A stretch of DNA of 60,377 nt, filler included, from Sphacelaria rigidula (Eukaryota): the NCBI GenBank assembly GCA_964200075.2. It is 10 parts of 10 records of this genome, joined end to end, with 100 filler letters (N's around TTAATTAATTAA, not from the genome) between each part and the next. Parts side by side here need not be neighbours in the genome. Positions count along the whole stretch, not along the records: positions 1 to 5,948 come from CAXNAA020023288.1; 9 more parts are not named here. One strand, written 5' to 3'. The notes under the pieces are model-generated. The model was not told where the DNA came from, searched no databases, and was given only the letters and a program-made list of their open reading frames with translations. Of the stretch, positions 905 to 40,300 are shown piece after piece. The number at the start of each line of letters is the position of its first letter. Position 1 is the first letter of the stretch. Position numbers and translations under genes: made by a program.

Positions 905-1164
905 TGTGACGAAATCACGCCTTCACGTTGAGTAGATGGTGATGATTAGATGATGACTTGGGATCTGTAGTGATGAGATGGATGATGACATGGACACAGG
1001 GGTGTTACCCTGATGTGATTTATGGGGCGTATGTGCTATGGGAGGCACTCCGGTAATGATAAGGTATTGTGAAGGCTGACAACTGAGACCTTGAGGCCAT
1101 TGGAACTGGGGAGTCCCTCAACAGCATTTAGACGCTGCAGTACTAGCAACCTGCTGGCGTCACA
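905..1164 (+). repeat. 5' LTR of Ty3/Gypsy element A (260 bp)
   Basis: TGTGACG...CGTCACA 7-bp terminal inverted repeat; homologous to the LTRs at 6171-6392 and 11193-11450; lies upstream of gag. Confidence 0.9.
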
Positions 1165-1477
1165 ATATCGGTATTAGTGTTAGTGCTAGGCGTACTAGTT
1201 GGTGCTATCGTTTGAGACTGCTAAACATTTCAGCAGGGAGACGTCTGGACAGCTTGTGATTAGCTTCGGTCATAGAGCCTCACGGACGCGTGAGGAGGTT
1301 TCAAGCTGAGGTAGCTGCAAAGGCGGCTGGCCCGTGAATGATCCAGACTGGAGACTTGCTGGAGCTGCGTACAGCGGGTGTTTATAGGACCCCAGGGCTG
1401 TGTGGAGCGGCGAAGAAAGCAGGTGTAAACTGAAGTTTGAGAGAAGGTTTCAGAAATCTTCGATTCTCCGCTCGAGA

Positions 1478-4400
1478 ATGTCGACTACTGAGGTACCGGC
1501 AATAGAGCCAGCGGAAACGACAGTAACCCCAGTCGTTCTAAGGGAAGAGTTGCGGCCGCCCAGTTACGGGAATTTGTATTCTGAGGGTGCTTCTCGTTCG
1601 TTTTACCCGAAATACGTGGAATAATAAAGGAGGATGGAGCATGCGAATGCAGGGGGTGCAGCAAGGCATTTGGTGGTTTCTATGGCGCAACTAGTGCCTA
1701 CCCCCCTGCAACACGTCTTCGCGAGAGGGTTCCACGAAAATCATACCAAAATGCCACTGCAGTTGGCCGCAGCGATGAAGAAGCACGCAAGGCATGCGGC
1801 AGGAGCGGAGGTAGAGCTTACTCAGGCGTCCGCGGCCGTGGCGAAGGCTGTCGCAATGAACCACAAGGGGAGAACCATGCGTAAGAGGGTAGAGCCCAGA
1901 ATGGGTAAGTTGGAGACGTATTCTTCAGAAAATCCCAACGTAGAGACGATTTATCGTTCGTCCGATGGGAAATCTCGCCCAGGTCCCGCTGCGGTGGTCA
2001 CGAAAGCGATGGTGGAGGGTCTGGCCCGGCGGAATTCAAGCAAGCCGTGCTTGTACAGTTACAGCACGAAATAAATTGGAAGTCGGACCCGTATTTAGTC
2101 ATGGATACCGTGGTGGCTGAAACTCAGGCATGGCGGCGGGTCGAAGTGTTCGGAAAATCATCCACTTCATCGCCGCAGTCTTCGAGCTCGCTTAACCGCG
2201 GATCAAAATCCGCAGGCAGTGCCGCCTCCAATATTACTTACTATCAGTGTGGTCAGGTAGGTCTCATCGCACGGAAGTGCCCAACGCCTTCTGAGGGGTA
2301 GTCTGGGCAGACGAGTGCCGTGCGCCCTCGCAGTCACAAAGGGGGGGAAGGTGATCGGGGTGGTGGGCGGAGGCGGATCCTCCAGCGATGGAGGTGTACA
2401 GTCCAGCTCCCAACAGCAGCAGCAGCAGGGGCAGCGGCGTCATCAGGGGTCCGGCTCTGGGTCCGACTCAGCCGCAGGAGCTGCTGCTCCACAACGGGCG
2501 GTCCAGGTGGGACCGACCTCTCTAGTGTCGGGCTCGGTGCCGGCGCCGCCGGGAGCAGAGCAAGGTGAGACGCCGGCTGTGGAGCCGGCCGGTTTTCAGC
2601 TGAAATTTGGATCCGATGCTGCGTCGGCCGGGGTATCGCTGCAATTTGGTTTTGCGGGCGGGGCTTCGTACCCGCCGGCGGTGCCGGTGACCCCAGCGGG
2701 GGCGTATGCCTGCGCCGCGCGCGCAGCCGTGACGCCAAGTGGGGATTACGACCCATCAGTCGGCAGAGCAGGTGCCGATCGAGGACCAAGACAATTATGT
2801 CCCTGCCGAGTTAGATCTCCCCAATCAACGGGCGCGGGGAGCTATATCGGTCAATACGTTGTTGGATTCAGGCGCCCACTTCACGAGCGTGTCGGTGCTA
2901 ATTGTGTGGAGATGCTGGAGTGTCTACTCCCCGGTGAGCAAATCCGAACTCCGTTCTCGCTCGGGGCGCCAGGCAGGCAGGCCATTACCGCATCGGGGCA
3001 ACGTATAAATGTGACGGAGCGTACCATTCCTCTACAGTTGGCGTTCCTGACAACCTGGGAGCCAGCAAAGTTCCCCTCAATATCGTTTGCGATCATGTCG
3101 GGGACGGATGGTGTCGTCCTGTTGGGCCTACCGACGCTTCGGGGGCTCGGAGTCGATCCGTATGATCGGTTGTTAGAGTCCCTAAAAACGCAAGTTTCGG
3201 CGCCCGTTTCGAGTGTCGAGACGCCTGCTTTTTTGGCCAGTTGCAGAGTGAGCTTGTCGGTTGATGCTGTCCAGAAGGCGGGGGGGCAGGTGTCCGAGGA
3301 GCGTGATCACGCGGTGGAACGCCTGGTGGAGCGTGGCCCCGATATGTTTATGGAGCCGGCGGAAGAAGAGTCCGCGCGAAAGGCTGCGCTTGAGGAAAGC
3401 GTGACGGATGCTGTGGAAAATGGCCTCGACGTCCCAAAAGCGGAGCGCTTGCGTGGCATATTGTATCGCCACGTTAACGCGTTTCGTCGTGCGCTGAGGG
3501 GTAATCCCCCTGCGCACGTGGAACCCATGAGGGCTACACTGAAGCCAGGGCCGGCCGCGGAGAAGGCAAAACCAAGGAGGTATGATCCGGTAAAGTCCAG
3601 TTGGCTAGCTTCTTGCATGGGAGCTCTTGTGGCGTTTGGGTTGATGTTCAGGAATCTACAGGCGGTGTGGTCCAGTCCAGCGATGGCGGTGCCGAAATAG
3701 GACTCTTTCCGTCTTGTCAGCGATTACGGAGCCGTCAATGATCAGGTGAAGAAGTCGCCGGGTGTCATGCCCAATCAGGAATCAGACATGATAGACCTGT
3801 TGAGTGCGCGATGTTTCGGTGAGTTGGACCTCCTACAGAGGGTACTGGCAAATGCCGTCGGCCGAAGAGGCGCACGAGGTATTCACAATCACGACTCCGT
3901 TTGGCATGTTTACCTCGCAAAGAGTACCGCATGGCGTGTTGAATGCTACTACTTCCTATTTTCAAGGTGTTATGGCAGACCTTTTAGATGGCTTGAAATG
4001 CAAGATTTGGGTGGATAATGTCTTTTTCTTCGCGGATACGGAAGACGAACTGTTGGATACGCTTGATGCAATCTTGGCTTGCTTAGAGAGTGTCGGTCTA
4101 ATTGCAGCTGCCCACAAGTGTACCTTTTTTGCTAGTGAACTAGTGTGGTGTGGGAAAGTATACTCACACGGCGGCGTCTCGCATGACCCGGTCCGCTTGC
4201 AAGGTTTGTCTGACATGCGACGTCCAGGAACAGCCGCAGAATTAATGCAATTCCTGCACGCAATGAACAGGTTGCGTACATCGTTACCACGTATGGCCGA
4301 AGTAGTGGCGCCCTTACGCGGTTCCCTAGAGGAGCTCATGGTGGGGGCTGCAAGGCGTACGAAGCGGGTGGCACAAAATCGTGTTATTCCAGCCGCCTCG

Positions 4401-5948
4401 TGGACGGAGGACAGGCTGCAGGCATGCGCGGCAGCGAAGAATCTGGTGGCTCATGCCGTGACGCTGTTCCATCCCCGCCCCGGTTGCCAGGTGCTGATGT
4501 TTCCGGATGAATCCGAGTGTCATTGGGGTAGTTTTTCAAGGCAGGTGCCTGATGCAGAAATGCAACGACGGTTGCCGGTTGAAGACATGACGCATGAACC
4601 GCTGGCTTTTCTGAGTGGTGATTTCAAAAGTTCACAGATGCGTTGGGCAACCGTTGACAAGGGAGGTTTTGCTATCGTGAGCACTTTTCGTTTTCTCGAG
4701 CATCTTTTGTGGAATGGCGTACACATTTTCACGGATCACCGAAATCTAGCGTACATTTTCAACCCGGGGGCATGCGTGACGTCTGTGTCGAAGGCGTTGG
4801 CACAACGATTGGGGGGATGGAAAGGTGTATTAGGACAGTATCGGTACAAGATTTGTCATATTTCGGGTGAACGTAACGCGTGGGGTGACTTGCTGTCGCG
4901 CTGGGTAAATATTCCCACTTTGCCTGCGCGCGCCGTGGCTGTGTATGGTCCGTGCGAATCTGATGACTCGATGCCGTCCAAATCTGTTGTCCGCCGAGCG
5001 CAACGAAAAGACGTTGGGGCCGACAATGCGGATGTGCAATCTTTCGAGTCGGACGTTGGTACTGCTATCTTGGACAATAAAGGTCTGTTTCGTGTGCATG
5101 TGGGGGGCTGAAACGTTTTGTGGATTCCGAGTTCTGACAAGCAGTTGCAGGTACGTCTGATGATTTGCGCGCACATGCGCGACGCCGGGCATCGTGGTGT
5201 GGCTGCGACGCTCGTGCGCTGGCAAGAGTTTTGTGTCTGGCAGGGGATAGACACTCTCATGTGCGCGAATTTGTCCGCCAGTGTCTTTACTGTGCTGACT
5301 CGAGGGCGGGCGATGTTGTTCTTCGCCCGCTCGGTGAAACGGTCCATGGGACCACGCCGAACGAAGTCGTTTATTTTGACTTCTTGCGCGTGGGCGAGAG
5401 TGTCCCGCTAGCTTCCCAAGGTTTGTCGGAGGATGCTGGGTTCCGATATATTTTGGTAATCATGGATGATTTGAGCAATGTTGTAGCTCTGGAACCAGTA
5501 GCAGTGTGCACTACTGAATCGACTGCTGCGTCTTTGCTGAATTGATGCAAAACTTTGAGGGTGCCCCGTGTGTGGGTGAGTGATACCGCCACGCATGTCA
5601 AGAATGCGAGCTTGGCTCGGTTGCGAGAGGCTCTGCGAGTTGATCACCAGTTTGCAGTAGCATATTCTCCGTGGTCTAATGGTACGTGCGAACGCATGGT
5701 AAAGGAAGTAGTTCGTGCTCTTCGATCTATTCTTCTCGAGCAGCGTCGAGAGGTGACCGAGTGGGTGGACGTGTTGCCCGCTGTGCAATGGGCACTAAAT
5801 ACAGCATATCGCCGTCGGTATGATAGTACGCCGTATCACGTGATGTTTGGCCGTGCCCCTCGGACGTCTTTCTCGGTGCTGGCGTCCTCGTCGGCGGGAG
5901 AGTGGAAGTGTGATGTTCTGGACGATGTTCAAATTAAGAGTGCATTGA
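1478..5948 (+). pseudogene. gag-pol pseudogene: degenerate Zn knuckle (YYQCGQVGLIARKC), protease (LLDSGA), RT (GYWQMP, RVPHGVLNA, WVDN), RNase H (MFPDESECHWG, FTDHRNL), integrase (HMRDAGHRG, MDDLS, VSDTATH, NGTCERM)
   Basis: Motifs spread over ORFs 1400-2301, 2315-3700, 2739-3008, 3804-5111, 5118-5545 and 5555 to contig end, separated by frameshifts and stops. Confidence 0.93.
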
Positions 5949-6170: not shown

Positions 6171-6392
6171 TGTTATATGGATAATGACTGGGGGCACGGG
6201 GATTTTGGAGGGTTGTGATTAATGACTGGGAACACGGAGATGGTACTTGCGTGTCTGGAAAGCTGGTGCCTTGGAAGGTCACTCCGATAGTATGATATGT
6301 TGTAAGGACTGATACCTGAAACCGAGGCCAGTAAGACTGGGGAGTCCCTCAGCAGCAGCGATCCAGCAGTTCTTCCACTGGCTAGCGTCACA
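6171..6392 (+). repeat. 5' LTR of element B (first ~35 nt missing)
   Basis: Aligns to 11193-11450 with roughly 18 mismatches in ~210 bp by manual count; ends CGTCACA. Confidence 0.88.
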
Positions 6393-9339
6393 ATATCGAT
6401 ATTAGTGGTGGTGTTAGTGCTAGAAACCTGCTGGAAAGGGATTCGGCGGAGTGAGTCTGGTAGCGGGGGACAACCTGAATCATCACGGACGCGTGACGGG
6501 GTTCCAGCTGGCGATAGCTGCAGACAGGCAGCTGGCCTGTGATTGATCCGGACTGGAGACTTGCTGCAGCTGCGTGCAGCGGGAGAATGGAGGTTCCTAC
6601 GACTGTGTGTTGCGGCGGCGAAGCAAGGAAAGTGCAATTCGCGAAGGTCCGCTGGCCTGCAAAGGTTCGCCGATAGCCTATTACCGCTACAGCTATGGCT
6701 ACGGCTCACGAATTACGTCCACCGCGACACCCGTGGTCATGCGGAAAGAGTTGCGACCTTCCCAATACGGGGACGGGAACTCAGAGAGTGCATCTCGAAC
6801 TTTTTACACGAGATATGTGGAATACAAGAAGCGTGTGGAGCACGCTCATGCAGGGGGTTTCGTGCGGCATCAGGTGGTGACAACGGCTCAACAAGTGCCA
6901 ACTCATGTACAGAGAGTCTTCGCTCGTTTGGAACGTAATGAGAGCACTATCACCCCGCCGCAATTGGTTGCGGCGATCAAAAAGCATGCTGGGCATGCGG
7001 CGGGCGCTTAGGTAGATCTGACACAAGCGTCCGTGGCGGTGGCGAAAGCTGTCGCCATGGATTCTCGGGGGAAAACGATGTTGGAGCGGGTGGAGCTCAT
7101 CCTGGCCATTTTCGAGAAGTACTTCACGGAAAATCCTAACGTAGAACTAGTATATCGTTCCCCCGATGGTCCGATGGTGAGTTCATCCCCGGCCCGGCTG
7201 CAGTAATTACTACGGCTTTGGTGAAGAGGTTGGTACCGGGAAAATCCAAGCAAGCCGTGCTTATCAAGCTGCAGCACCAAGCAGACTTGAAGGCCGACCC
7301 ATACCTGATGATGAGCACCGTCGTGGTCGAGGCCACGGAGTGGCGGAAAATAGAGGTGTTCGGCTAGTCGTCCACCTCTTCGCCGAAATCTTTGCGCAAC
7401 CATGGCTCGAAATCGGCCGGTCGCGCCGCGAGTATAACTTGCCACCGCTGTGGCTAGGTCGGCCATTACGCGCGCGATTGCCCAAAGTCTTCCGGTGGGA
7501 AGTGTGGGCAGTCTCATGCGGCGCGCCATCAGCATCGTCAGCACAAGGGCAAAATACGAGATAATCGTGGTGGCGGCGGCGGATCCTCCGGCGATGGAGA
7601 GTCGCAGGCGAGCCCTCAGCAGCAGACGTAGCAGCAGCAGAAGCGGAACCAGCAGCAGCAGGGGCAGCGGCGTCAGCATGGGCCTAGCTCTGGGTCCGGC
7701 GCCGCCGTAGGTGCTGCTGCTCTGCAACGGGCGGTGCAGGTGGGCCCGACTTCTACAGAGTCGAACACTGCGCCGGCGCCGTTGGTGGCGCCGACGGCGA
7801 CACTGGCAGCAGCGCCAGGCGCGACGCCTGTTGATGCGTTGGTCGGAGGTTCGCCAAATTCTTGGTTTGCTGGCTGGGGGGCGTACCCGCCGGCGATGTC
7901 GTTCGAACCTGCCGGGGCGTCTTCGCCTGCGCAGCTTGCGCAGCCGTGGCGTCAAGTGGGATTAGCGGCGCATCGGTCGGTGGAAGAATTTCCCGTGGAG
8001 CTTGCCGACAGATACATTCCGGCGGAGTTCTGTCTCCCGAATCAACGGCAGCGTGGAAACATTGTGGTTCGGTCTGCGTTGGGTCATGGCGCCCGTTTCA
8101 CTAGTTTGCCGGTGCAGATGGTTGAGATGCTGCAGCGTCAACTCCCGGGTGTGCCGCTGCGCATCCCGTTTTCGCTCGGGGCGCGGCCGGCAGTCACCGC
8201 GTCGGGTCAGCATGTTGCCGTCACGGAGCGTACTGTTCCGTTGCAGCTAGCTTTCAAGACTACTTGGGGGCTGGCGCCGTTGCCTCCGATCTCGTTTGCG
8301 ATTATGCCACGGTCGGATGGCGTTGTTCTTCTGGGGCTGCCGACGCTACAGGATCTAGGAGTCCACCCGTATGAGTGGTTGAAGGACCCCATCAAGACGC
8401 GGATGTCTCCGCTTCGTCCACGCTTGGAGACGCTTGCCGTTTTGGGCAGTCATCGCATGAACTTGTTGGTGAATGCTTGTCAGGAGGCTGGAGGGCAGGT
8501 GACCGAGGAGCGGGATGCGGCGGTGGAACGCTTGGTAGAGCGCGGCTCGGAGATATTTATTGATCCGGCGGAAGAAGAGCCCGCTCGGAAGGCCGCGCTA
8601 GAGGAGAGCGTGACGGATGCTGTGGCGAAAAGCCTCAGCGTCCCCAAAGCGGAGCGCCTGCGCGGCATATTGCATTGCCGCGTCAACGCGTTTCGACGTG
8701 CGCCGCGGGGTGGTCCTCCTGCGTGTGTGGAGCCCATTCGTGTTTAGCCAAAATCTGAGGCGTCCGCGGTGAAGACGAAGCCGCGGCGGTACGATCCAGT
8801 GAAGTCGAGTTGGTTGGCGTTGTGCATGGCGGCTCATTTGGCGCTCGGGTTGGTGTTACGGAATATGCAGGCGGGGTGGTCCAGCCCAGATATGGCGTTT
8901 CCGAAGAAGACTGCATCGTAGACGGAGGGCAGGCTGCCGGCGTGGGCGGCAGCAAAGGATTTGGTGGCTCATGCCGTGACGCTGTTCCATCATCGTCCTG
9001 ATTGTCACGTGTTTATGTTTCCGGATGCATCTGAGTGCCATTGGGGTAGTTTGGTCATGCAGGTGCCTACTGTTGAAATTCAAATGCCTGTGCGCGCTGT
9101 GGCTGTGTATGGCCCGTGTGAACCTGATGACTCGATGCCGCCCAACTATATTGTCCGCCAAGCGCAACGAAAAAACCTTGGGGCCGAAGATGCGGATGTG
9201 CAATCTTTCGAGTCGGACGTTGGTACTGCTATCTTGAATTACGAAGGTCTGTTTCGTGTGCATGTGCGTGGCCGAAACGTTTCGTGGATTCCGAGTTCTG
9301 ACGAGCAGTTGCAGGTGCCTCTGATGATTTGCGCGTACA

Positions 9340-9661
9340 TCGCCAAGTTAACCGCTTCGAAGGTTAAGTGGGATGAGTGCCCATCGAGCACGAGTACGTG
9401 CGGCTTCCCGTCAGCTAGCCCGGTGTCAACAATATGCTTGTGAAACGCATTTATGTAATTAACAAAGACCGGTCCCTTCATGAGCGATGATTCCGTTGCA
9501 GCATATAATGCACCCGGTGGACCCCCGCCATTAATCCACGCCGCTTGGACTCGCTGCCCTTTGAAAATAATCAGCGGGGGAGTAACCTTGCCCNNNNNNN
9601 TCTCGGGAATTAGAACGCTTCGTGCCGACGATTTTTTGTCCCTTCTCGGCAACAATCTTCC
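9340..9661 (-). mobile_element. Internal fragment of a pogo/Tc5-like (DDE_1) transposase inside the retrotransposon integrase
   Basis: Minus-strand translation KIVAEKGQKIVGTKRSNSRE-[N gap]-GKVTPPLIIFKGQRVQAAWINGGGPPGALYAATESSLMKGPVFVNYINAFHKH...HVLVLDGHSSHLTFEAVNLA, typical DDE_1 motifs; no TIRs seen. Confidence 0.85.
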
Positions 9662-9860
9662 GTGGGTGCGACGCTCGTGCGCTTGGGACGCTCGTGCGCT
9701 TGCAGGCGTTTTATGACTGGCGGAGGATAGAAACTCATGTGCGCGAATTTGTCCGCCAGTGTCTTACTGTGCTGACTCGAGGGCGGGCGATTGCTGTTCC
9801 CCGCCCGCTCGGCGAAACGGTCCATGGGACCACGCCGAATGAAATCGTTCATTTTGGCTT

Positions 9861-9970: not shown

Positions 9971-11192
9971 TTCTTGTACGTGGGCAAGAGTGGCCCGCTA
10001 GCTTCCCAAGGCTTGTCAGAGGGTGCTGGGTTTCGATAAATTTTGGTAATCATTGATGATTTGCGCAACTTTGTGGCTCTGGAACCAGTAGCAGTGTGTC
10101 CTGCTGCATCGACCGCTGCAGCTTTGCTGCATTGGTGCAAAACTTTGGAGGTGCCACGTGTGTGGGTGAGTGATACCGCCACGCATTTCAAGAATACGAT
10201 CTTGGCCCGATCACCAGAGGCTTTGCGTGTTGATCATCAGTTTGCGGTAGCGTATTCTCCGTGCTCTAACAGTACGTGCGAACGCATGGTCAATCAAGTA
10301 GTTCGTGCTCTTCGTATTATTCTTCTCGAGCAGCGTAGAGCGGTTTCCGAGTGGGTGGACATGTTGCCTGCGGTTTAATGGGCGCCAAATCCAGCGTATC
10401 GTCGTCGGTACGATAGTACGCCGTACCACGTGATGTTTGGTCGTGCTCCTCGGACGTCTTTCTCGGTGCTGGCGTCTTCGTCGGCGGGGGAATGGAAGTG
10501 TGATGTTCTGGACGATGTTCAAATTAAGAGGGCATTGCAAGGAGTCTTGGACTTGCAATAACGTTTCCACGTTCACGTTCAGGAACGTGTTGCCGCTGAA
10601 CGTGCGCGTAGACTTGAGTGGTCTGCGTCGGGGCTGGAATTGCCGAATTTTGAGGTAGGCGATTATGTCTTGTATGCACGCGTGCGTCGTCCGGGTGTTA
10701 CGCCCAAGTTGATGGCGACATGGACTGGTCCATGGACAGTGGTTGGTGCCCACCACCCGCACGTGTTTGAGATTCAGAACACTGTTTCGGGTCGTGTTCA
10801 GACCGCCCATGCAGCTCGTTTGCGCTTTTATGCAGACTCGCAGCTTAATGTTACGGCTGACGTTAAGGACGTGTTCCTGCATGCTTCCAATCCGGGGCAA
10901 TTTCAGATGGCTGGTATTGTCCGAGTGGCAGAAGCAGACGATCGTTCGTTGATCGTGCTGGTCGACTGGGTTGGTTTCGAAGTTGAGGAGCGTACGTGGG
11001 AGCCTTTCAAGGATATTTTTGAGGCCACTCCGGAATTTCTTCCGAAAGAGTTGCGTAAATTGTGCGTGACTCGTGCCGTTGCTGCTCGCATTACGAGTGA
11101 GTTTGGTATCCAATTGTGACTTACTCATCATTTTGGCGTTTTCTATGTGTGAAGCTTGTTGATCGATTTTCGTCCAACGCGCTTGGGGGTGC

Positions 11193-11450
11193 TGTGACGA
11201 AAATACGCCGTTACGTTGAGTTGGTAGTGATGATATGTATAATGACTGGGGGCACGGGGATTCTGGAGGGTTGTGATTAATGACCGGGGACACGGAGATG
11301 GTACTTGCGTGTCTGGAAAGCTGGTGCCTTGGAAGTTCACTCCGATAGTATGATGTGTTGTGAAGGCTGACGACTGAAAACAAGGCCAGTATGACTGGGG
11401 AGTCCCTCAACAGCAGCGATCCAGCAGTTCTTCTATTGGCTGGCGTCACA
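11193..11450 (+). repeat. 3' LTR of element B (258 bp)
   Basis: TGTGACG...CGTCACA termini; follows the chromodomain stop codon and G-rich tract. Confidence 0.92.
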
Positions 11451-18519: not shown

Positions 18520-18726
18520 TAATGCGTGAGAGGACCGCGTGCTTAGAGGACCACGCCGTAGTTCAAAACACCTCAGGATCGATGTTTTTCTAAACCAATC
18601 GGGCCAGTCCCTGCGGGAACCGCGCCCCTGACCATAACCCCAACCCTAACCCTAACCCTAACCCTAACCATGGGGATGTTCAAACTCCGATGCGGCCTTC
18701 TAAGCACGCGGCCCTGTCACACATTA
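18520..18726. mobile_element. ~207-bp MITE with ~55-bp TIRs enclosing a (CCCTAA)n telomeric array
   Basis: TAATGCGTGAGAGGACCGCGTGCTTAGA... versus ...TCTAAGCACGCGGCCCTGTCACACATTA; array at ~18627-18669; GTGTCT close to both ends. Confidence 0.75.
18627..18669 (+). repeat. Interstitial telomeric repeat: four CCCTAA plus degenerate units
   Basis: Read directly from the sequence. Confidence 0.9.
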
Positions 18727-19330: not shown

Positions 19331-21425
19331 GTGCCTTCTACGTGTCAATTACCACCTTCTGCTGCGCGCACAAGAAACGCACCGCATGATTATGCGGGTT
19401 TCTCGCCCTTCAGGTAGACTATCTCACGTCCTCGAGACGGCCGAGCATACTGCTGCCGCCTACGCTCGAAACCATGTTCTCCACTGGAAAAACAGCTCGA
19501 GCAAGTCAAATCAAGTGAATGACTGACAATGTGCAAAACACACTGTCGCCTCGCGATACGTCCTGCCTCTCCCCCCTTGTTCACATCCTTCGTGATGCAG
19601 GCTACCACCCTGGCCCCCTCGACGGATTGAGGAAGTTTCACTGTCCCGGATGCGAGCAAGACACTACTTGCCCGCTCTGCATGACCACTTTGGTGAGTCT
19701 ACGTTCCGTGGCCAAACATTGCCATGAGTGCTACAAGTATGCATGGACGAAGGCCGATCGATCGGTGAGATGGACGTCGAGCGAGACATTGTCCGCATAT
19801 TCTACTCAGTCAGTGGTGGTGGACAGATGCACTGGGCAGCAGCATGTCGGTAGAGACTGTATGTGAGCACTGTGTTGCAGGTCTGCCGGCAATTGTCGCT
19901 TCGACACAGCGCAGTTGAAGACAAGACTTCGTCAGCTTTACTTCTCTGATCGGGGACCTGTGTATTTACAGCGAGTTGTAGCGATCACCTGAACGACGGT
20001 ACATCGAGTCGATGCATCTCGAGCATACCTCGATTCCCGTACGTACGCGTACGAATGAGGTACGCGTCTGACTCGAGAGCAGGACCGCCGAAGCAACGAA
20101 AGCGGTAATAAGGCGTGCTTCCAATCACCCGTCGTTACGATTCGGCGGGTTCCAGTATCGCAACTTCGTCGGGTGTTTGTTGGACTGAAGAGCCAGGCAC
20201 ACATGGTACTTCACTGCCGCGAGCAAGGGCTTCCGTGTTGATTCCATCGTTCGTGATCCGTGCCAAAACTGCAGAACAAGTAGGAAATAGCCACGCAAGT
20301 AAAGTACGTACACTGTCGTGATCTACATGGCCATTTTGTCTGCAAAAGAACGTGTGCGTGCTCAGACCGCCCTGTCAATCCGTCCCCGAATGCGAGACTA
20401 GCCCGTAATCTCATGGAACGGGTGCCCATCGGTCCCCTCGCACCTGCCGTGCACACTTTGTTATCGAGCATTGGGTCAACGCTCCCGCAGCCCGTCGATG
20501 CTCATCGGACTATCGTGTCAGCTCTTGTCCGCACGTTTCTTCACAACGGGGATTGGTGATGTCAACGTCGGTAGTGTTTGTGCATGTATGGTGCTCAGTG
20601 CTCATTGTAGCATATGATGTTCTGTGAATACTCGCTGCATCTAACGTCGTGACGCAAGAAGAGTGAAACATTGCGCATTCGTTCTATCTGGCAATCTTGC
20701 CACACATCAGTAAGTAGGCTACGAATGTCTGCCCCAGAGAACTTTGTGCGTTGGGTCATTCGGCAAACTCGCTCACGGAATCACACTGTTCATGCGACCC
20801 CCATGTTCGTCATATGCGCCGCTCGTCTATCATCTGCTCCGGGTGTTTGTCATACCTGTCGAAGCGTATTATCCCAGCTGCTGCTTGAATATCGGATATG
20901 TACCCGTGTTGCCCAGGGGTAGACGTCATTGTCTTGTTTTTATGTAGAAGTCAAACTCACCACTGGTACTGTACCGCTTGGGCCAGGTCAAGCTGAGTAC
21001 GCTGCGATTCGTACGTACATTGATTGACTCGTATGAGTATGGCATATGTACCATGGAAGAAGGCAGTGGGTCAGTTTCGGTAGTCACCCTTTATGTTTTC
21101 AGCCGCCAGCACTTGAGAAATACCGTTATGTAGTGCCGTCCACTGCACCATTGCCGGACGGGGGTCGAGCTTCACGCCTGTTTGGACTCGTACCCTAGCT
21201 AGCTCATGAGTTGATATGTGGTGATATACTGTTACTTGCACGTCATTCCTCTTATTGGCTGTGTGCCGAGAATTTGATAATCGCGTGCTGATCGCTATGT
21301 ACGCCATTACTTCGTCGTCAAGCTGGTTACGTATCTGACCGATATTCGACCTCCCCAATTATACGACCACCGTTGCCACGTGTAACGTTGCCTATCACCA
21401 GACGATAGCTGATATCAAACACTTC

Positions 21426-21618
21426 ATGTGCCTCAAGTGCGGAAAACGACTTAAAAATATCTTCGGTGATCCCGTGGGACACTCCACGGTGGTCGGGGTC
21501 ATCAACGCCAGCAGCGGTAACAGCGGCAGCAACAGTAACAGCGGCGGCGGCGGCGGCGGCAGCAGTAACAGCAACAGCAGTAGCAGCAGCAACAGCAACA
21601 GCAGTAGCAACAGCAACA

Positions 21619-21649
<31 letters not shown>

Positions 21650-24092
21650 CGGTAGTGACGCAACCGTTAACACCGGAAATGAGCTCAACATGGATCACAA
21701 CGCCAGTAACAACGCTAGCAACGGCAGCGTCGACACCGGGATCACGGACACCATCGATGACAGTGCCATCAACATCGCGGACACCCCGCGTAACAGCCTC
21801 AGAGAGGGCGACGAGGTGCCAGTAGCCAAGGGTGGGCGCGTCAACGTTCCGCTGTCGGCCTCCGTGCCCGTGGTAATTGACTGTGCGCTCCCTTATTCTT
21901 CGGAGGCTCTGACGTCGCACACAGAGCCACCACGGACTAGGCGCGGAGCAGTCGCCTCCACTGTCCGCCACACAGAGCTTCCCCGGAAGGAGGTTGGTGA
22001 GGCAGTGGTGCCGGGTGAAAATAGTGTCGCGAACGTGTTTCAACGTGAGCCGATGGTGGAGAGTAGTGGTGTCGCCGGTCCCCCGACCTCGAGCCACGAT
22101 ACCGCACGGGTGGAGGTGCCCAGTGGTGTGGAAGCGGTTGCAGCGGGCGGCAAGAGGGTGACGAGCTGGGCAGCCGGGTCTGAGGCGACTACGACTGGGA
22201 CCGCGGCCACGGCTGCCGCCAGTACCGCCACCACCAGCAAAAACCGAAGCAGCAGAACCAACTACAGCACCGGCAACAACAACATCGGGATCACCGACAA
22301 CACAGGTGACTACACTATCAACATCGCCGACATCCCGCACAACCGCCTCAGCGAGGGCGCCGAGGTGTCAACGTCCAAGAGTAGGCGCGTGATCTTCCCG
22401 CTCTCGGCCTCCGTACCCGTGGTAAGTGACGGTGCGATTCCTCGTTCTTCGAATGCGCTGGTGTCGCACATAAAGTCACCACGGACTAGGCGCGGAGCAG
22501 TCACCTCCACTATCCGCCACACAGAGCTCCGCCGGAAGGAGCTTGGTGCGACGGTGGCACGGGGTGAAAAGAGTACCACGAACGTGTTCCAGCGTGAGCC
22601 TGAGGTCGTGAGTGGTGCTGCCACCGGTACCCGGACCCCAGCTACCGACAGTTTACGACCCAAGGTTTCCAGTCGTGTGGCAGCGGTTGCAGCGGGTGGC
22701 AAGCGGGTGACGGGATGTGCAGCCGGATCCAAGACGACAACGGCTGCGGCCGCCGCCACGGCTGCCACCAGTACAACCACCACTACCAACGACGGTAACA
22801 ACAACAATGACGACAACGACAACGTCGAGATCACCGACCAGATAAATGACAACGCCGCCAACGCCGGGATCACCAACGCCGGGATCACCAACGCCATCGA
22901 TGACGACGCAATGAACATCGCCGACACCCCGCGCAACAGCCTCAGAGAGGGCACCGAGATACCAATAACCAAAGATGGGCGTGTCGACATCCCGATGTCG
23001 GCCTCTGTGCCCGTGGTAAGTGGCTGTGCGCTCCCTGATTCTTCGGAGGCTCTGCCGTCGCACAGGAAGTCACCATGGACTAGGCGCGGAGCAGTCGCCT
23101 CCGCTATCTGCCACACAGAGCTCCGCCGCAAGAAGCTTGGTGCAGAGGCGGCACGGGGTGAGAAGAGTGTCACAAACGTATTCCAGCGTGAGCCAGTGGT
23201 GGTGAGCGGTGCTACCACCGGTACCCGAGCCCCGACCGCCGATGCTTCACGAGTGGAGGTATGCAGTGGTGTGGCGGCGGTTGCAGCAGGCGGTAAGCGA
23301 GTGACGGGCTGTGCAGCCGGATGTGAGGCAACTACGGCTGGGACCGCCGCTATTACTGCCGCCAGTACCACCACCACCACCACAACTAATAGCACCAACA
23401 TCGGAAAATGCAACGACAACATCGGGATCACCGACAATATAAATGACAACGTCACCAAGATTGCCGAAACCACGCGCAATACCTTCATTGAGCGGGCCAA
23501 GGTGTCTACATCCAAGTGTGGGCGCGTCAACATCCCGATGTCGGCCTCCATGCCTGAGGTAAGTGACGGTCCCCTCTTTCATTTTTCGAAGGCTCCAGTG
23601 TCGCACACGAAACCATCACGGACAAGGCGCGGAGCAGTCGCCTCTTCTATCTACCACACAGAGCTCCGCCGGAAGGAGCTTGGTACAGAGGTGGCCGGGG
23701 GTGAGAAGAGTGCCACAAACGTGTACCAGCGGGAGCCAGTGGCCGTGGCTAGTGGGGCCGCCAGTCCCCCGACCCCGACCCCTGATACTTCACGAGTGGA
23801 GGTATCGAGTGGTGTGGCAGTGGATGGTACGGGCGACGAGCGGGTGATGGACTGCGCAGCCGGATCCAGGGCAAGTCCGACTGCGGCCACCGCCACAGCT
23901 TCCACCAGTACCGCTAGCACCGCCGCAACCACAGCCACCACCACCACCATAACTACCACCAATCGAGACACTGACAGCGACAGCAACAAAGTCACCACCA
24001 CCACCATCACTACAACCTCCACCAACGCCACCATTACCAGCGCCACCTCCGACAACATCACCACAATTACCATCACCATCAACAACAAGACA
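21426..24092 (+). CDS. Partial ORF (889 codons to contig end) of four ~180-200-aa tandem repeats separated by Thr/Asn/Ser-rich linkers; function unknown
   Basis: No stops over 2.67 kb despite diverged units starting ~21768, 22317, 22911, 23451 (motifs TRRGAV, HTELRRK, NVFQREP); N-terminal CxxC. Confidence 0.55.
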
Positions 24093-24192
24093 NNNNNNNN
24101 NNNNNNNNNNNNNNNNNNNNNNNNNNNNNNNNNNNNTTAATTAATTAANNNNNNNNNNNNNNNNNNNNNNNNNNNNNNNNNNNNNNNNNNNN

Positions 24193-32191: not shown

Positions 32192-33604
32192 CACACGTAG
32201 GACAGCTAATGAGCTAGCTCATCTGCGGGCGGTAGCTCACTTGTAGTCAAACATGTACATGTGAGCTACGTCCGATAGCTCAACACAAGGTAAACGTACG
32301 CTGATGAGCTACGAGTTGGTAGCTCACCCAGGACAAACATGCGTAGCTCATGCAGCTCTCATAGCTCACCCAGGACGAATCTGAGCTGATGAGCTACGGG
32401 TTGGTAACTCACCTATGGCAAACGTGCGTAGCTCATACAGCTCCCATAGCTCACTCAGGGCGAATATGAGCTGATGAGCTACGGGTTGGTAGCTCACCCA
32501 GGGCAGATATGTGCAGCTCATATCGCTCTCACAGCTTATCCAGGGAAACATGTGCGGATGAGCTACACTCGATAGCTACCCAAGGCAAACATGTGTGGCT
32601 CACGCGGCTCTTGTAGCTCACCCGGGAAAAACATGAGCGGATGAGCTACGCCCGATAGCTCACCCCAGGGATACATGGTCGCGGCTCACTCACGTCATAT
32701 GCCTAGCTCGCCGCTGGCCAACCCCGTGTTGCTTATGATGTAACATTCTTGTTCGAACGGATGGTGCCACATATCATGAGGTTGTGATGTTTTGCCTCAC
32801 TGATCGCGATAGGAAGATGAGAAGCCAACACATATCCTCGTTCGCTTGGTCGGATGGTTAAAGAAAGTATCAATATCCAGTGTCTACAATAATCGACCGA
32901 TTCATTTCTTTTGATCGAATGGCCGCGAGGGTACGAGTCCATCTGGTCATGCATACATAATTCAAATGAAATTGGCGCCGATTCAACAGATGACTTGCGC
33001 TCGCCGTCAAGGGGTTAGCCCTTTGATCGCGACGGTCGGCGATCTGATAATCAGCATAATTCACTCTATTTTCCGGGTGTGAATGATGCCGATTCAGAGA
33101 CCTCCTACCCTCGCGGTCAAAGGGATGAGCAATCGTAGCTCTCATAGCTCTCATCGCTGATCCAGGGTAATTATTCGCAGCTCTCCTAGGTCTCATAGCT
33201 CATCCAGAGCAAACATGTATAGCTCATTCATCTCTCATAGCTCATCCAGGGCAAACATGTGTAGCACAGGCATTTCTCATAGCTCATTCGGGGCAAACAT
33301 GCGTAGCTCATGCAGCTCTCATAGCTCACCCGAGACGAATCTGAGCTGATGAGCTACGGGTTGGTAGCCCACCTATCACAAACGTGCGTAGCTCATACAG
33401 CTCCCATAGCTCACCCAGGCCTAATATAAGGTGATGAGCTACGGATTGGTAGCTCACGTACGGTAGACATGCGTAGGTCGTGCAGCTCTCATAGCTCACC
33501 CCAGGAAAAACGTGCGTAGCTCATGTAGCTCTCATAGCTCACTAGGGAGCTACGCTCAAAACGAGCTAGCTCGAGCTATAGGGAGCTGATCTGTCCGGCG
33601 TGTG
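32192..33604. mobile_element. 1413-bp non-autonomous hAT-like DNA transposon with AGCT-rich subterminal arrays
   Basis: TIRs CACACGTAGGACAG / CTGTCCGGCGTGTG; 8-bp TSD GAATATTG/GAATATTT; ~40-bp TAGCTCA units at ~32200-32700 and ~33135-33590. Confidence 0.85.
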
Positions 33605-36845: not shown

Positions 36846-37103
36846 TGTAGCCAAATGATACCAAGCCGTAGGTTTCAGTATAATCGCATGCATGATTGGA
36901 GCAGTGGCAGGGGACAGGGGATCCTGGATTGATGACCCTCATCTGTGTGGCTCCTTGCTGTTTAGCTCTTGATGTGGTCTGTAGAGGATCACTCCGTGAT
37001 AATAACAAGTGAGAAGGAAGGATTTGTCGAGCACGAAGCCAGTGCTACTGGAGGAGTCCCTCGTGAATAGTCCTCTTGTCCAGATCGTCTGGCAGAGGCT
37101 ACA
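36846..37103 (+). repeat. 5' LTR of Ty3/Gypsy element C (258 bp)
   Basis: TGTAGCC...GGCTACA 7-bp inverted termini; same length class and internal motifs as the LTRs of A and B. Confidence 0.88.
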
Positions 37104-37304
37104 ATATCTAGATATCATTCTTCCGGCACTCTGTTAGAGGAGTTTTGGCTGAGGAGAAAAGTTGGGCAGCAGCTGAGAGCCAGTTTAGCCCACAGACAGG
37201 AGGAGACCAACTTGAAGCGCACAGCAGAGGGGGATGCTCCGTGAGCTGGAGGACGCACAAGTCAGGCACTAGTCTCTCCGTGAAGTGTTTGAAGCATAGA
37301 CGAC

Positions 37305-40300
37305 ATGGCTCAAGCGGTGGCAGCGCCGCTGGTGTTAGGTGAGCCACTACAGCCGCCAGAGTATGGTGAAGTATGAACAGAGGAGGCATCACGGGTTTTT
37401 TTCGCAGCATACCTTGAATATGTACAGCGTCTGAGTCTCGCTAATGGACAAGGCATTATACGGCATGATAGAGTTGGCATAGGACAACTTATTCCTGTCT
37501 ACATTCACCGCTGCTTCGAAGACACGTACAAGGACGGTCGGGCTATGACCCCCGATGAATTGCTTGATGCTGTGAATCAGCATGCCGGGTATACTACAAC
37601 CGGTGGAAAGCATGACGCTACGCGGGCTACAGCAGACCTGCGTAGGATAGTTACCATGAAGCAAAGCGGTGGGAAGTCCGTGAAGGATTGTGCTATGATG
37701 GTTAGTTCAGATATGGAACGTTTTTTTGCAGAAAATCTGATGGTGCAAGCCATGTATCGTGCGGAGGACAGGAGTTGGTTGCCAGGCCCGGCCGAGTCGG
37801 TTTCCATAGCTTTGGTGGACGGGATTTCGCCTCCGGAATTCAAGGCGTATGTTAGAAGTGTACTAACGTATGTTGACGGCTGGAAAAAGAACCCGATGGT
37901 GGTGTTGAAAACATATTTGAGGCGACCGACCAGTGGGAGTTCATTGAAGCACATGGCCGGCGCGACTCTGCAACAAGTGCAGGTGGTATGCGCCACAAAC
38001 ATCAACAGCAACAGAAACAGAAGCCGTCTTCGCGAGAGTCGTCCACTCGCGCGTGTTACAACTGCGGCGACACCGGACATATGATCAAGGACTGCACCAA
38101 GCCTCGCGCTCGAGGCGCGGCACAGGGCAATGCACGAGGTTTGTCAGGATCTCGGGGCGGTCATCACGGTGGACGGGGCCGTGCCAATCAGGGATGCGGG
38201 CGCGGCGGCCGCGGTAGCAAACAATCGGCGGCGAATGGTAGCTCCTCCGCTGCTGTTGCTTCCACTACGCCATCAGGTGGTGACTCTGGATCTTATGCTT
38301 CGTCCGTAGCGCAGCGGACAGTGTACGTGGGAAATGCAAATACTTCGGTGGGGAGTGCTGGAGCCAATAGCTCGCAACCCCTCGGCCAGGAAGGATCCGT
38401 GTCTGGTGTATTCCCTGCTGCTGCGACGGCTGCAACAGCGCCGTCTGCATATTCGGCGACTTGGTCTGGTTGGACCGACGATTCACAGCTATCGATGTCA
38501 AGTGCTGGAGGGCAGCCCTGGCGTCAGGTGACTCTTGAGACAGAACAGGGTTCTTCGGCAGCCGTGGTACCTGTCGATCGCAAGGCTGAATGCTTACGCG
38601 CAGATTTAACCTTGCCTGGTTCTGTAGGTTCGTTCACGGCCCGCGTTATTCTGGATTCTGGGTCCGCGCTCACGTCGATCGGTGTGAGGTTGCTAGAACA
38701 GGTATCTTCGCAGTTTGGCGGCGCTCAGATTCAGATTCCGTTCGAAAACGGACCGCAAACGGCACAGACTGCCATGGGTGCTCCCGTGACGGTTACACAC
38801 AAAACGGTGCCAATTACTGTTAGCGTGCGTACGCCGTGGGGGGCTGTGCAGTTGCAGCCCATTACGTTCGCTGTCATGCCCGATAGGGACAACGTGGTCC
38901 TAGTTGGGATGGCGACAATGAAGGAGCTTGGGATTGATCTTTATCCGCCGGCGTTGGAGAAGTTACGTCCACGTTCTGTGCCGGTGCGAACCGGCGGGGA
39001 AAACCCTAGTTACCTTGCTGCAAGGCGTGTGATCGCATCCATACGGTCCAGAGCGCCAATGAGGAGGAGACTCTTGCTGATCAAGCGATAGAGCGCTTGG
39101 TCGATCGGGGGCCTGATATGTTGATGGACCCAGCAGAGGAGAGAGGTGCACGAGAACGTGCGCTTGAAGATAGTGTGCGGCAGGCCGAGCAGAAGGGCCT
39201 GAGCGCCGATGGCGCACATTGTCTGCGCGATATTTTGCCTCGTCGCGTAGATACATTTCGCCGTGCGCTGCGTGGTGATCCGCCAGCGCGCGTTGAGCCC
39301 GTGAAGATGCAGCTTAAGCCCCAGGCAAATGCGGTGAAGGCCAAGCTCAGACAGTACGATCCGGTGAATACCGGGTGGCTTGCCTCCATCATCGCAGCTT
39401 TGGTGGTGTTCGGTTTGTTGATTAGGAACATCCAGGCTGTCTGGGCGAATCCGGCGATGGCGGTGCAAAAAAGGGACACATTCCGTTTGGTCAGCGACTA
39501 TCAGGCGGTGAACGCGCAAGTGGAACAGTCCCCGGGGGTGATACCAAGCCAAGAAGACATGCGGGAGTTGCTGGGAGCCCAATGCTTCGGCAAGTTGGAC
39601 CTGCTACAGGGGTATTGGCAGATGCCTTTGGCGCCGGAGGCTCAGGAAATCTTCACGATCGTCACGCCTGACGGTTTGTTTACGCCTACTCGTGTCCCGC
39701 AGGGCGTGTTGAACGCCACGGCGTATTTCCAAGGTGTGCTGACTGACATTTTGCGAGGTCTAGATTGTAAAGTGTGGGTGGATGACGTTTTCTATTTTGC
39801 TGACACCGAAGAAGCATTGCTAGCTTTGCTTGACGAAACTCTTGACCGCTTGGAGAGTGTTGGTCTGTTCGTCGCTGAACATAAGTGTACCTGTTTCGCA
39901 CGCGAAGTGGTTTGGTGTGGTAAGGTGTACTTGAAAGGGTACTGTTTCGCATGATCCCGTCTGTATTCAAGGTTTGAGCAATATGCGACGTCCTCAAAAC
40001 GCTAGTGAGCTGATGCAGTTTCTGCAGGCGGTAAATTGGTTGCGGACTTCGCTCCCGCGCATGGCGGACGTAGTTGCTCCGCTTCAAGTATTTCTGGAAC
40101 AACTCATGGTCGGGGCTTCGCGTCGGACCAGGCGGGTGGCGCGTAATCGTACCATTCCGGAGGACGCTTGGACGGAGGATCGTGTGAGGGCATGGCGTGC
40201 AGCGCAAGATTTGGTGGCGCAAGCGGTGCCGCTGTATCATCCTCGTCCAGGGTGCGTTGTTCTCATGTTTCCAGATGCTTCGGAATTTCACTGGGGTAGT

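Follow-up and report, generated by a model that had tools for sequence, protein, structure and literature searches.

Reviews of LTR-retrotransposon priming distinguish three types of primer and leave over some elements in which no primer-binding site (PBS) is detectable, as set out in the available sections of PMC6317226. In the fungal GalEa Copia elements the PBS is replaced by a palindrome that includes the last A of the LTR and is accompanied by a second arm, the accessible text of the source giving no mechanism (PMC5445492). The Sphacelaria rigidula lineage described here is similar to GalEa, as far as that text describes it, in that a tRNA PBS is absent, the conserved sequence following the 5' LTR is palindromic together with the last LTR A, and the site has no complement in the LTR. 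The likeness extends to the occurrence of two symmetric variants and to the frequent location of the site within a larger hairpin, with the loop at the LTR junction. The differences, judged against the same portions of text, are that GalEa elements are Copia with a 10-bp palindrome whereas the Sphacelaria lineage is Gypsy with 12-14 bp, that GalEa has a complementary CHSeq2 arm 12-41 nt downstream which the Sphacelaria lineage lacks, and that a long U5-leader stem is predicted to close the site in the Sphacelaria lineage. The site thus resembles that of GalEa in position and symmetry, while the lineage, with its Gypsy domain order, is not a GalEa member.

Elements of the Tf1/Tf2/Tj1 and Tf1/sushi/Tcn1 type share with the lineage the Gypsy domain order, the lack of a tRNA PBS and, judged from weak matches in the lineage, a C-terminal chromodomain-like region. 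In the available parts of the sources, however, the PBS of Tf1 is non-palindromic and complementary to the transcript's initial 11 bases, whereas complements of this kind were present here at 0 of 72 junctions (PMC7175516, PMC4600332, PMC6317226). The 4-bp target-site duplications seen in 5 of the 11 copies checked are a further difference from the Tf1 group. Retroviral DIS elements and the Ty1 PAL are likewise palindromes proposed to pair two genomic RNAs, the DIS being located at a hairpin apex, but in the accessible descriptions they coexist with a tRNA PBS, while the Sphacelaria palindrome occupies the PBS position itself (PMC4974528, PMC5445492). SM-Tcn1 (PMC2864245), Cryptococcus Tcn2-5 (PMC7175516) and bivalve TRIMs (PMC6934838) similarly have neither a tRNA PBS nor a recognised self-primer; unlike in the present lineage, the available text on them describes no perfect palindrome at the first position after the LTR (+1). 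A literature search that was short on subscription papers, Repbase and the primary Tf1 papers returned no report of a palindromic PBS in Gypsy elements, nor of brown-algal or oomycete PBSs. The +1 palindrome is a real feature, of a kind already known from GalEa and new in Gypsy as far as the literature found extends.

The window, the whole 60,377-nt stretch of S. rigidula DNA that was analysed (assembly GCA_964200075.2), consists of separate contigs strung together with linkers, and its elements A, B and C are therefore not neighbours. The three sequences that a sequence-only reading had placed directly after the 5' LTRs were all found in position: CACA-ATATCGGTATT-AGTG from 1161 in element A, CACA-ATATCGATATT-AGTG from 6389 in element B and TACA-ATATCTAGATAT from 37100 in element C. 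Gypsy domains are present in each of the three elements, all of them broken copies, and the 3' end of A runs off its contig at 5948. The LTR ends were confirmed by 3' or solo B and C LTRs genome-wide, in which unrelated flanks follow the same end. Coordinates are collected in the table.

Table. Features of elements A, B and C in the window.
Element	Feature	Position	Strand	Remarks
A	5' LTR, TGTGACG...CGTCACA, 260 nt	905..1164	+	Homologous to the B 3' LTR and to the paired LTRs of other A copies
A	PBS-position site including the last A of the LTR; one change relative to the family palindrome ATATCGATAT	1164..1175	+	
A	Predicted U5-leader stem, limits approximate	1118..1218	+	Folded on other A copies; window copy is 1 of 19 aligned rows
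A	RT and RNase H, broken copy	3804..5111	+	Pfam RVT_1, RT_RNaseH
B	5' LTR, first ~40 nt missing; 91% identity to own 3' LTR	6175..6392	+	
B	Perfect 12-bp palindrome AATATCGATATT, last LTR A plus +1 to +11	6392..6403	+	
B	Integrase C-terminus, weak chromodomain match	10562..11119	+	PF00385 E=0.0015, below curated cut-off
B	Purine-rich tract GGGGGTGC 5' of the 3' LTR; common to families A-D	11185..11192	+	
B	3' LTR	11193..11450	+	Same CGTCACA end as the B 5' LTR
C	5' LTR, TGTAGCC...GGCTACA, 258 nt	36846..37103	+	
C	Perfect 12-bp palindrome ATATCTAGATAT at +1 to +12	37104..37115	+	In most family members, 14 bp when the LTR's A is counted
C	Predicted U5-leader stem, palindrome at apex, limits approximate	37071..37155	+	Variable-length pyrimidine-rich spacer just 3' of the palindrome
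C	Broken gag(CCHC)-PR-RT-RH-IN frames; 3' LTR lost to contig end	37877..42072	+	

The window elements are decayed copies of one brown-algal, putatively chromodomain-type Ty3/Gypsy lineage. The lineage displays the domain order gag-PR-RT-RH-IN of Ty3/Gypsy, and the named elements most closely related to it come from brown algae and oomycetes: the closest RT relatives (58-61%) are from Ectocarpus and Cladosiphon, and more distant ones (36-40%) from Phytophthora and Aphanomyces. In an RT tree constructed without named chromovirus references, A/B, C and a further family, D, are separate and all fall in one group with brown-algal proteins. Unbroken relatives of ~1,650 aa present the order RT-RH-IN, a weak chromodomain match and conserved acidic residues, which we take to be the RNase H motifs. 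The PF00385 chromodomain was matched in element B and in three of four unbroken relatives with E values of 7e-5 to 1.5e-3, all below the curated cut-off, and a chromodomain is annotated in several more distant relatives. The RT catalytic motif, usually of the form YxDD, is WVDD in the lineage and WVDN in the window copy of A (window positions 3804-5111 and 39010-39954 for A and C, respectively).

LTR pairs (TG...CA) were identified in 22 of the 60 RT-selected loci examined, out of 150. No intact copy was present among those compared. The site counts given below derive from one genome, since the five loci retrieved from viral, metagenome and prokaryote collections include none with a usable 5' LTR junction of the lineage. 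Another Gypsy of the same genome, with an ordinary TGG site, was the sole LTR-paired locus among the 20 RNase H-selected loci examined (of 150). Algal elements of the lineage also occur as contaminants in bacterial MAG records (P0005, L171-L173). At L004/L011 (G000:C23814) only ~1.2 kb separates two B-type LTRs, and both the PBS-position site and the purine tract are kept, constituting a short non-autonomous derivative.

In this lineage the 5' LTR is followed immediately not by TGG but by a perfect palindrome from +1, usually lengthened by the last A of the LTR. The family palindromes are ATATCGATAT in A/B, ATATCTAGATAT in C, and ATAAACGTTTAT and GTAAACGTTTAC in D. When 83 5' junctions were called from LTR and downstream similarity, leaving the site itself unused, a perfect palindrome from +1 was observed in 13/21 A, 7/18 B, 18/32 C, 4/7 D1 and 1/5 D2 junctions. 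Patterns anchored in the flanks matched 182 A/B, 116 C and 23 D copies genome-wide, compared with 2, 0 and 0 for the reversed controls. By hand count, ATATCGATAT is perfect in 57 of the first 100 A/B copies listed of the 182, ATATCTAGATAT in 51 of the 100 C copies listed of the 116, and the D palindrome in 7/23; the remaining A/B and C copies differ mainly by scattered single changes. The next T also pairs with the last LTR A in 49 of the 100 listed copies of A/B and, equally, of C (hand counts). Family C usually has this T at +13 and thus a 14-bp palindrome with the last LTR A; the window copy has lost it. Perfect 10-mer and 12-mer palindromes start at just 91 (0.15%) and 53 (0.09%) of the 59,558 window positions, respectively, and the coincidence of three distinct family palindromes with +1 is therefore not due to chance.

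Of the three palindromes on which the sequence-only reading relied, those of B and C are indeed perfect and differently centred, but the three amount to two independent cases, since A and B share a type. The change in A that leaves a G-U pair is present in the window copy and is a variant of individual copies, seen in 3 of the 100 A/B copies listed, rather than a conserved wobble. The further pairing of the LTR-terminal CAC with the downstream GTG in A and B was recovered in the predicted structures, with AGTG 94-100% conserved in A/B, and is absent from C.

Symmetry is maintained while sequence and length vary between families. Three mirrored pair differences separate C from D1, and the central TA that distinguishes A/B from C is a symmetric indel. 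Overall, the family forms display four mirrored substitution pairs and one symmetric insertion, the centre being self-complementary throughout, with TCGA, CTAG or ACGT as its four bases. The mirrored changes among C, D1 and D2, together with the symmetric indel between A/B and C, support the earlier proposal that self-complementarity, not sequence, is conserved. The +1/+12 pair of D is A-T in 10, G-C in 7, G-T in 1, A-C in 3 and another combination in 2 of 23 copies (hand count). The outer G-C pair coincides with one downstream subfamily tag in 7/9 copies, so that D1/D2 represents one compensatory event at subfamily level. Inside families, decay has affected the site much as it has the LTR end, with 82-100% conservation per position in A/B and C. 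Ranked by LTR-pair identity, the five youngest-looking copies (94.6-99%) include four with 1-3 site changes, and across 21 LTR pairs 13 site changes were counted against ~14 expected from LTR divergence (hand arithmetic). Pairing with the last LTR A is broken in a B subfamily (5 of 100 listed copies), and the outermost pair is broken in some C copies. Mirror-image variants within families, such as ATATCGGTAT and ATACCGATAT, are expected from independent transitions and were set aside as evidence.

In copies with a perfect site, the site self-duplex has a calculated energy between -9.3 and -15.7 kcal/mol. The best pairing of the site with the LTR reaches -3.8 to -8.3, which is no better than with shuffled LTRs. 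The local hairpin of the site is weak (-0.1 to -4.5). For 12 of 13 120-nt fragments, the dimer MFE structure is predicted to hold the entire site in intermolecular pairing, while the predicted monomer folds of C and D contain a hairpin of 4-6 bp with a 4-nt loop. The self-complementary centre and these folding energies favour an intermolecular duplex over the small hairpin. In the 120-nt folds of C, D and some A/B copies, the palindrome is further predicted to cap a long, imperfect stem of U5 and leader; a U5-leader stem around the PBS is a property of retroviruses and Tf1. Compared with shuffled leaders, and with the palindrome removed, the U5-leader duplex has a mean z of -2.1 in C (15/24 below -2), -2.3 in D1 (5/7), -2.0 in D2 (1/2), -1.3 in A (5/13) and -1.0 in B (2/15), where a distal control pairs equally well. 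No U5-leader stem was formed by the B reference copy (L020). Pairing between U5 and leader is best within the own family for A, C and D1, which does not hold for B and D2. In A, C and D about 85-88% of the stem cells are paired, with few two-sided changes, and in C a spacer of variable length (3-7 nt) follows the palindrome within the loop adjoining the LTR end.

These observations may, tentatively, be explained by a palindrome that acts as a PBS supplying its own primer in trans, through pairing of two RNAs, RNase H cutting of one and priming of the other. U5 would pair with the leader in each genomic RNA, displaying the palindrome at the tip of a long stem-loop, and two co-packaged RNAs are predicted to pair there as a 10-14 bp duplex. 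The RNase H of RT would then cut one of the two strands where the duplex ends on its 3' side, by analogy with Tf1, whose RNase H cleaves an RNA duplex according to the accessible text of PMC7175516. The new 3'-OH, facing the LTR end of the uncut RNA, would prime minus-strand DNA, and plus-strand synthesis would copy the palindromic primer, which would restore an identical site for the second strand transfer. With the primer as the source of one strand of the site and the template as the source of the other, each cycle would both require symmetry and rewrite it. Such a scheme costs the PBS of one RNA per cycle, and we know of no described element that makes this sacrifice.

One junction in family C fits plus-strand read-through into a U5-bearing primer. 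At L058 (G000:C7549, about 9340-9680), LTR and palindrome are followed by a 7-nt duplication, a 51-nt inverted U5 and the normal leader; the inverted arm displays four differences from its own LTR and ends in the GGAGTCCC motif conserved in the LTRs of A, B and C. This single case is the only such junction in C, no inverted-U5 junction was found in D, and fold-backs of this type can alternatively arise at the DNA level.

The palindrome could instead be a dimerisation or packaging signal of the DIS or Ty1 PAL kind whose location at the PBS position is coincidental, the primer being a protein, a 3' end or an unrecognised RNA. The predicted position of the palindrome atop a long stem-loop corresponds to how a DIS is arranged, the available part of PMC4974528 describes palindromic dimer signals in Ty1, and the self-complementary centre is explained equally well. 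This explanation is nevertheless unlikely, as DIS hairpins, in the accessible descriptions, accompany a PBS (PMC5445492) and no other PBS was found here, and as the exact +1 register of all families would be unnecessary. Intramolecular fold-back comparable to that of GalEa-CHS, in which the small hairpin on the U5-leader stem would be cut 3' of the palindrome and prime on its own U5, agrees with the monomer folds of C and D, would be expected to leave the same junction as L058, and recalls the larger hairpin around the GalEa site in the available text of PMC5445492. It is made quite improbable by the weakness of the hairpin alone, by loop bases that are self-complementary in all four types though a hairpin would not need it, and by a cut that would part the PBS from the rest of the template. 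A CHSeq2 arm is also missing: in 43 copies with a perfect site, the best CHSeq2-like second copy of the 9-mer within +150 has 2-5 mismatches and no fixed place. Perfect palindromes are, in general, typical of sites for dimeric proteins, and the site might act in DNA by binding a host or element protein with a promoter or integration role; yet the families differ in sequence and length and agree in symmetry, and the element would still need a primer site at the PBS position, which renders this role highly improbable.

As regards known primers, no family form has a TGG-initial site and the best match to a tRNA 3' end is 1 nt, and the absence of TGG excludes tRNA 3'-end priming. The interpretation drawn from the sequence alone is partly supported; the U5-leader stem around the site and the GalEa precedent had escaped it. 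Exclusion of internal tRNA segments or other RNAs is partial, since the 58 distinct organellar and nuclear tRNAs compared, from 63 scored of 16,541 candidates, form an incomplete set in which the positive control, the TGG-type Gypsy of the same genome, found no cognate tRNA. A host RNA or fragment outside this set (an internal tRNA piece, an snRNA or a small RNA) could thus be the primer, with symmetry as a by-product. The search of the site against this incomplete set of 58 tRNAs gave no match above chance: the best matches were of 6-8 nt with Watson-Crick pairs and 9-10 nt with G-U allowed, and pairing of D sites over 10 nt (3 G-U) with a tRNA-Met was rejected as a candidate, such length being reached by 14 of 60 shuffles. 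With four different palindromic host RNAs required in addition, a host primer appears very unlikely. The claim that the LTRs hold no Tf1-type complement was confirmed. Under the definition in the available text of PMC6317226, at least 10 nt of LTR are complementary to a region starting 0-5 nt after the LTR; 0 of 72 junctions (the 83 without six rearranged or degenerate ones and five with <230 nt upstream) reached this length, or 1/72 with G-U pairs, the mean best length of 4.3-4.9 nt being like that of shuffles. A relaxed form of priming by the transcript 5' end might use a GU-rich LTR stretch ~91-97 nt before the LTR end, which pairs over 5-7 nt with the start of the site at a similar position in A, B, D1 and D2 and, in A, with 5 nt of U5 as well. 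However, this stretch (near -97) is absent in C, pairs no better than shuffled LTRs, remains unchanged alongside the D1/D2 substitution and leaves the palindrome unexplained; it was rejected as a Tf1-type primer, and the relaxed form is just as improbable as a DNA-level role. Four runs of contigs showed no transcript start, and the strand stayed the same at all 15 joints listed of 31, which speaks neither for nor against this form. Trans self-priming from the palindrome is ranked first because it accounts for the +1 register, the exact PBS register common to four sequence types, as well as for the self-complementary centre, the mirrored changes and the absence of any other primer.

If true, trans self-priming would couple dimerisation to priming and free the element from host tRNA and from control by tRNA fragments; it would also explain why LTR finders based on the PBS would miss such elements. 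It predicts that symmetric double changes are tolerated and asymmetric ones are not, that priming depends on RNA concentration, and that the element's own U5-PBS RNA is attached to strong-stop DNA. With four symmetric sequences and hundreds of copies, the lineage constitutes a natural mutagenesis series. Possibly, trans self-priming is a fourth start of LTR reverse transcription, next to whole tRNA, half tRNA and cis self-priming of the Tf1 type, reached independently by stramenopile Gypsy and fungal GalEa Copia elements.

Several further features of the window and the assembly were noted. Locus L193 was considered as a second fold-back and dropped, the A/B match being ambiguous; it was not counted because its 10-nt arm may equally be a damaged LTR start. 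The locus (G000:C25716:4588-4870) comprises an A-type LTR, the palindrome and 15 nt that terminate in TCACA. This integrated unit, nearly devoid of internal sequence, lies within an 84-85 nt tandem repeat and has a 4-bp duplication at its flanks. A 42/84-85 bp tandem repeat family of the same type as this insertion host occupies window positions 32235-33547. At 21339-24140 a 933-aa open frame contains a Gln-rich stretch and four repeats of ~550-600 bp, with no Pfam match, and short interstitial telomere-like CCCTAA runs are located at 488-532 and 18626-18669. Two different mitochondrion-like tRNA clusters were identified on G000 contigs C5 and C13 (L065, L083, L084, L086), the C5 cluster including a tRNA with anticodon TCA and the C13 cluster Trp(CCA); from these two clusters, the assembly may hold the organelle of a second organism.
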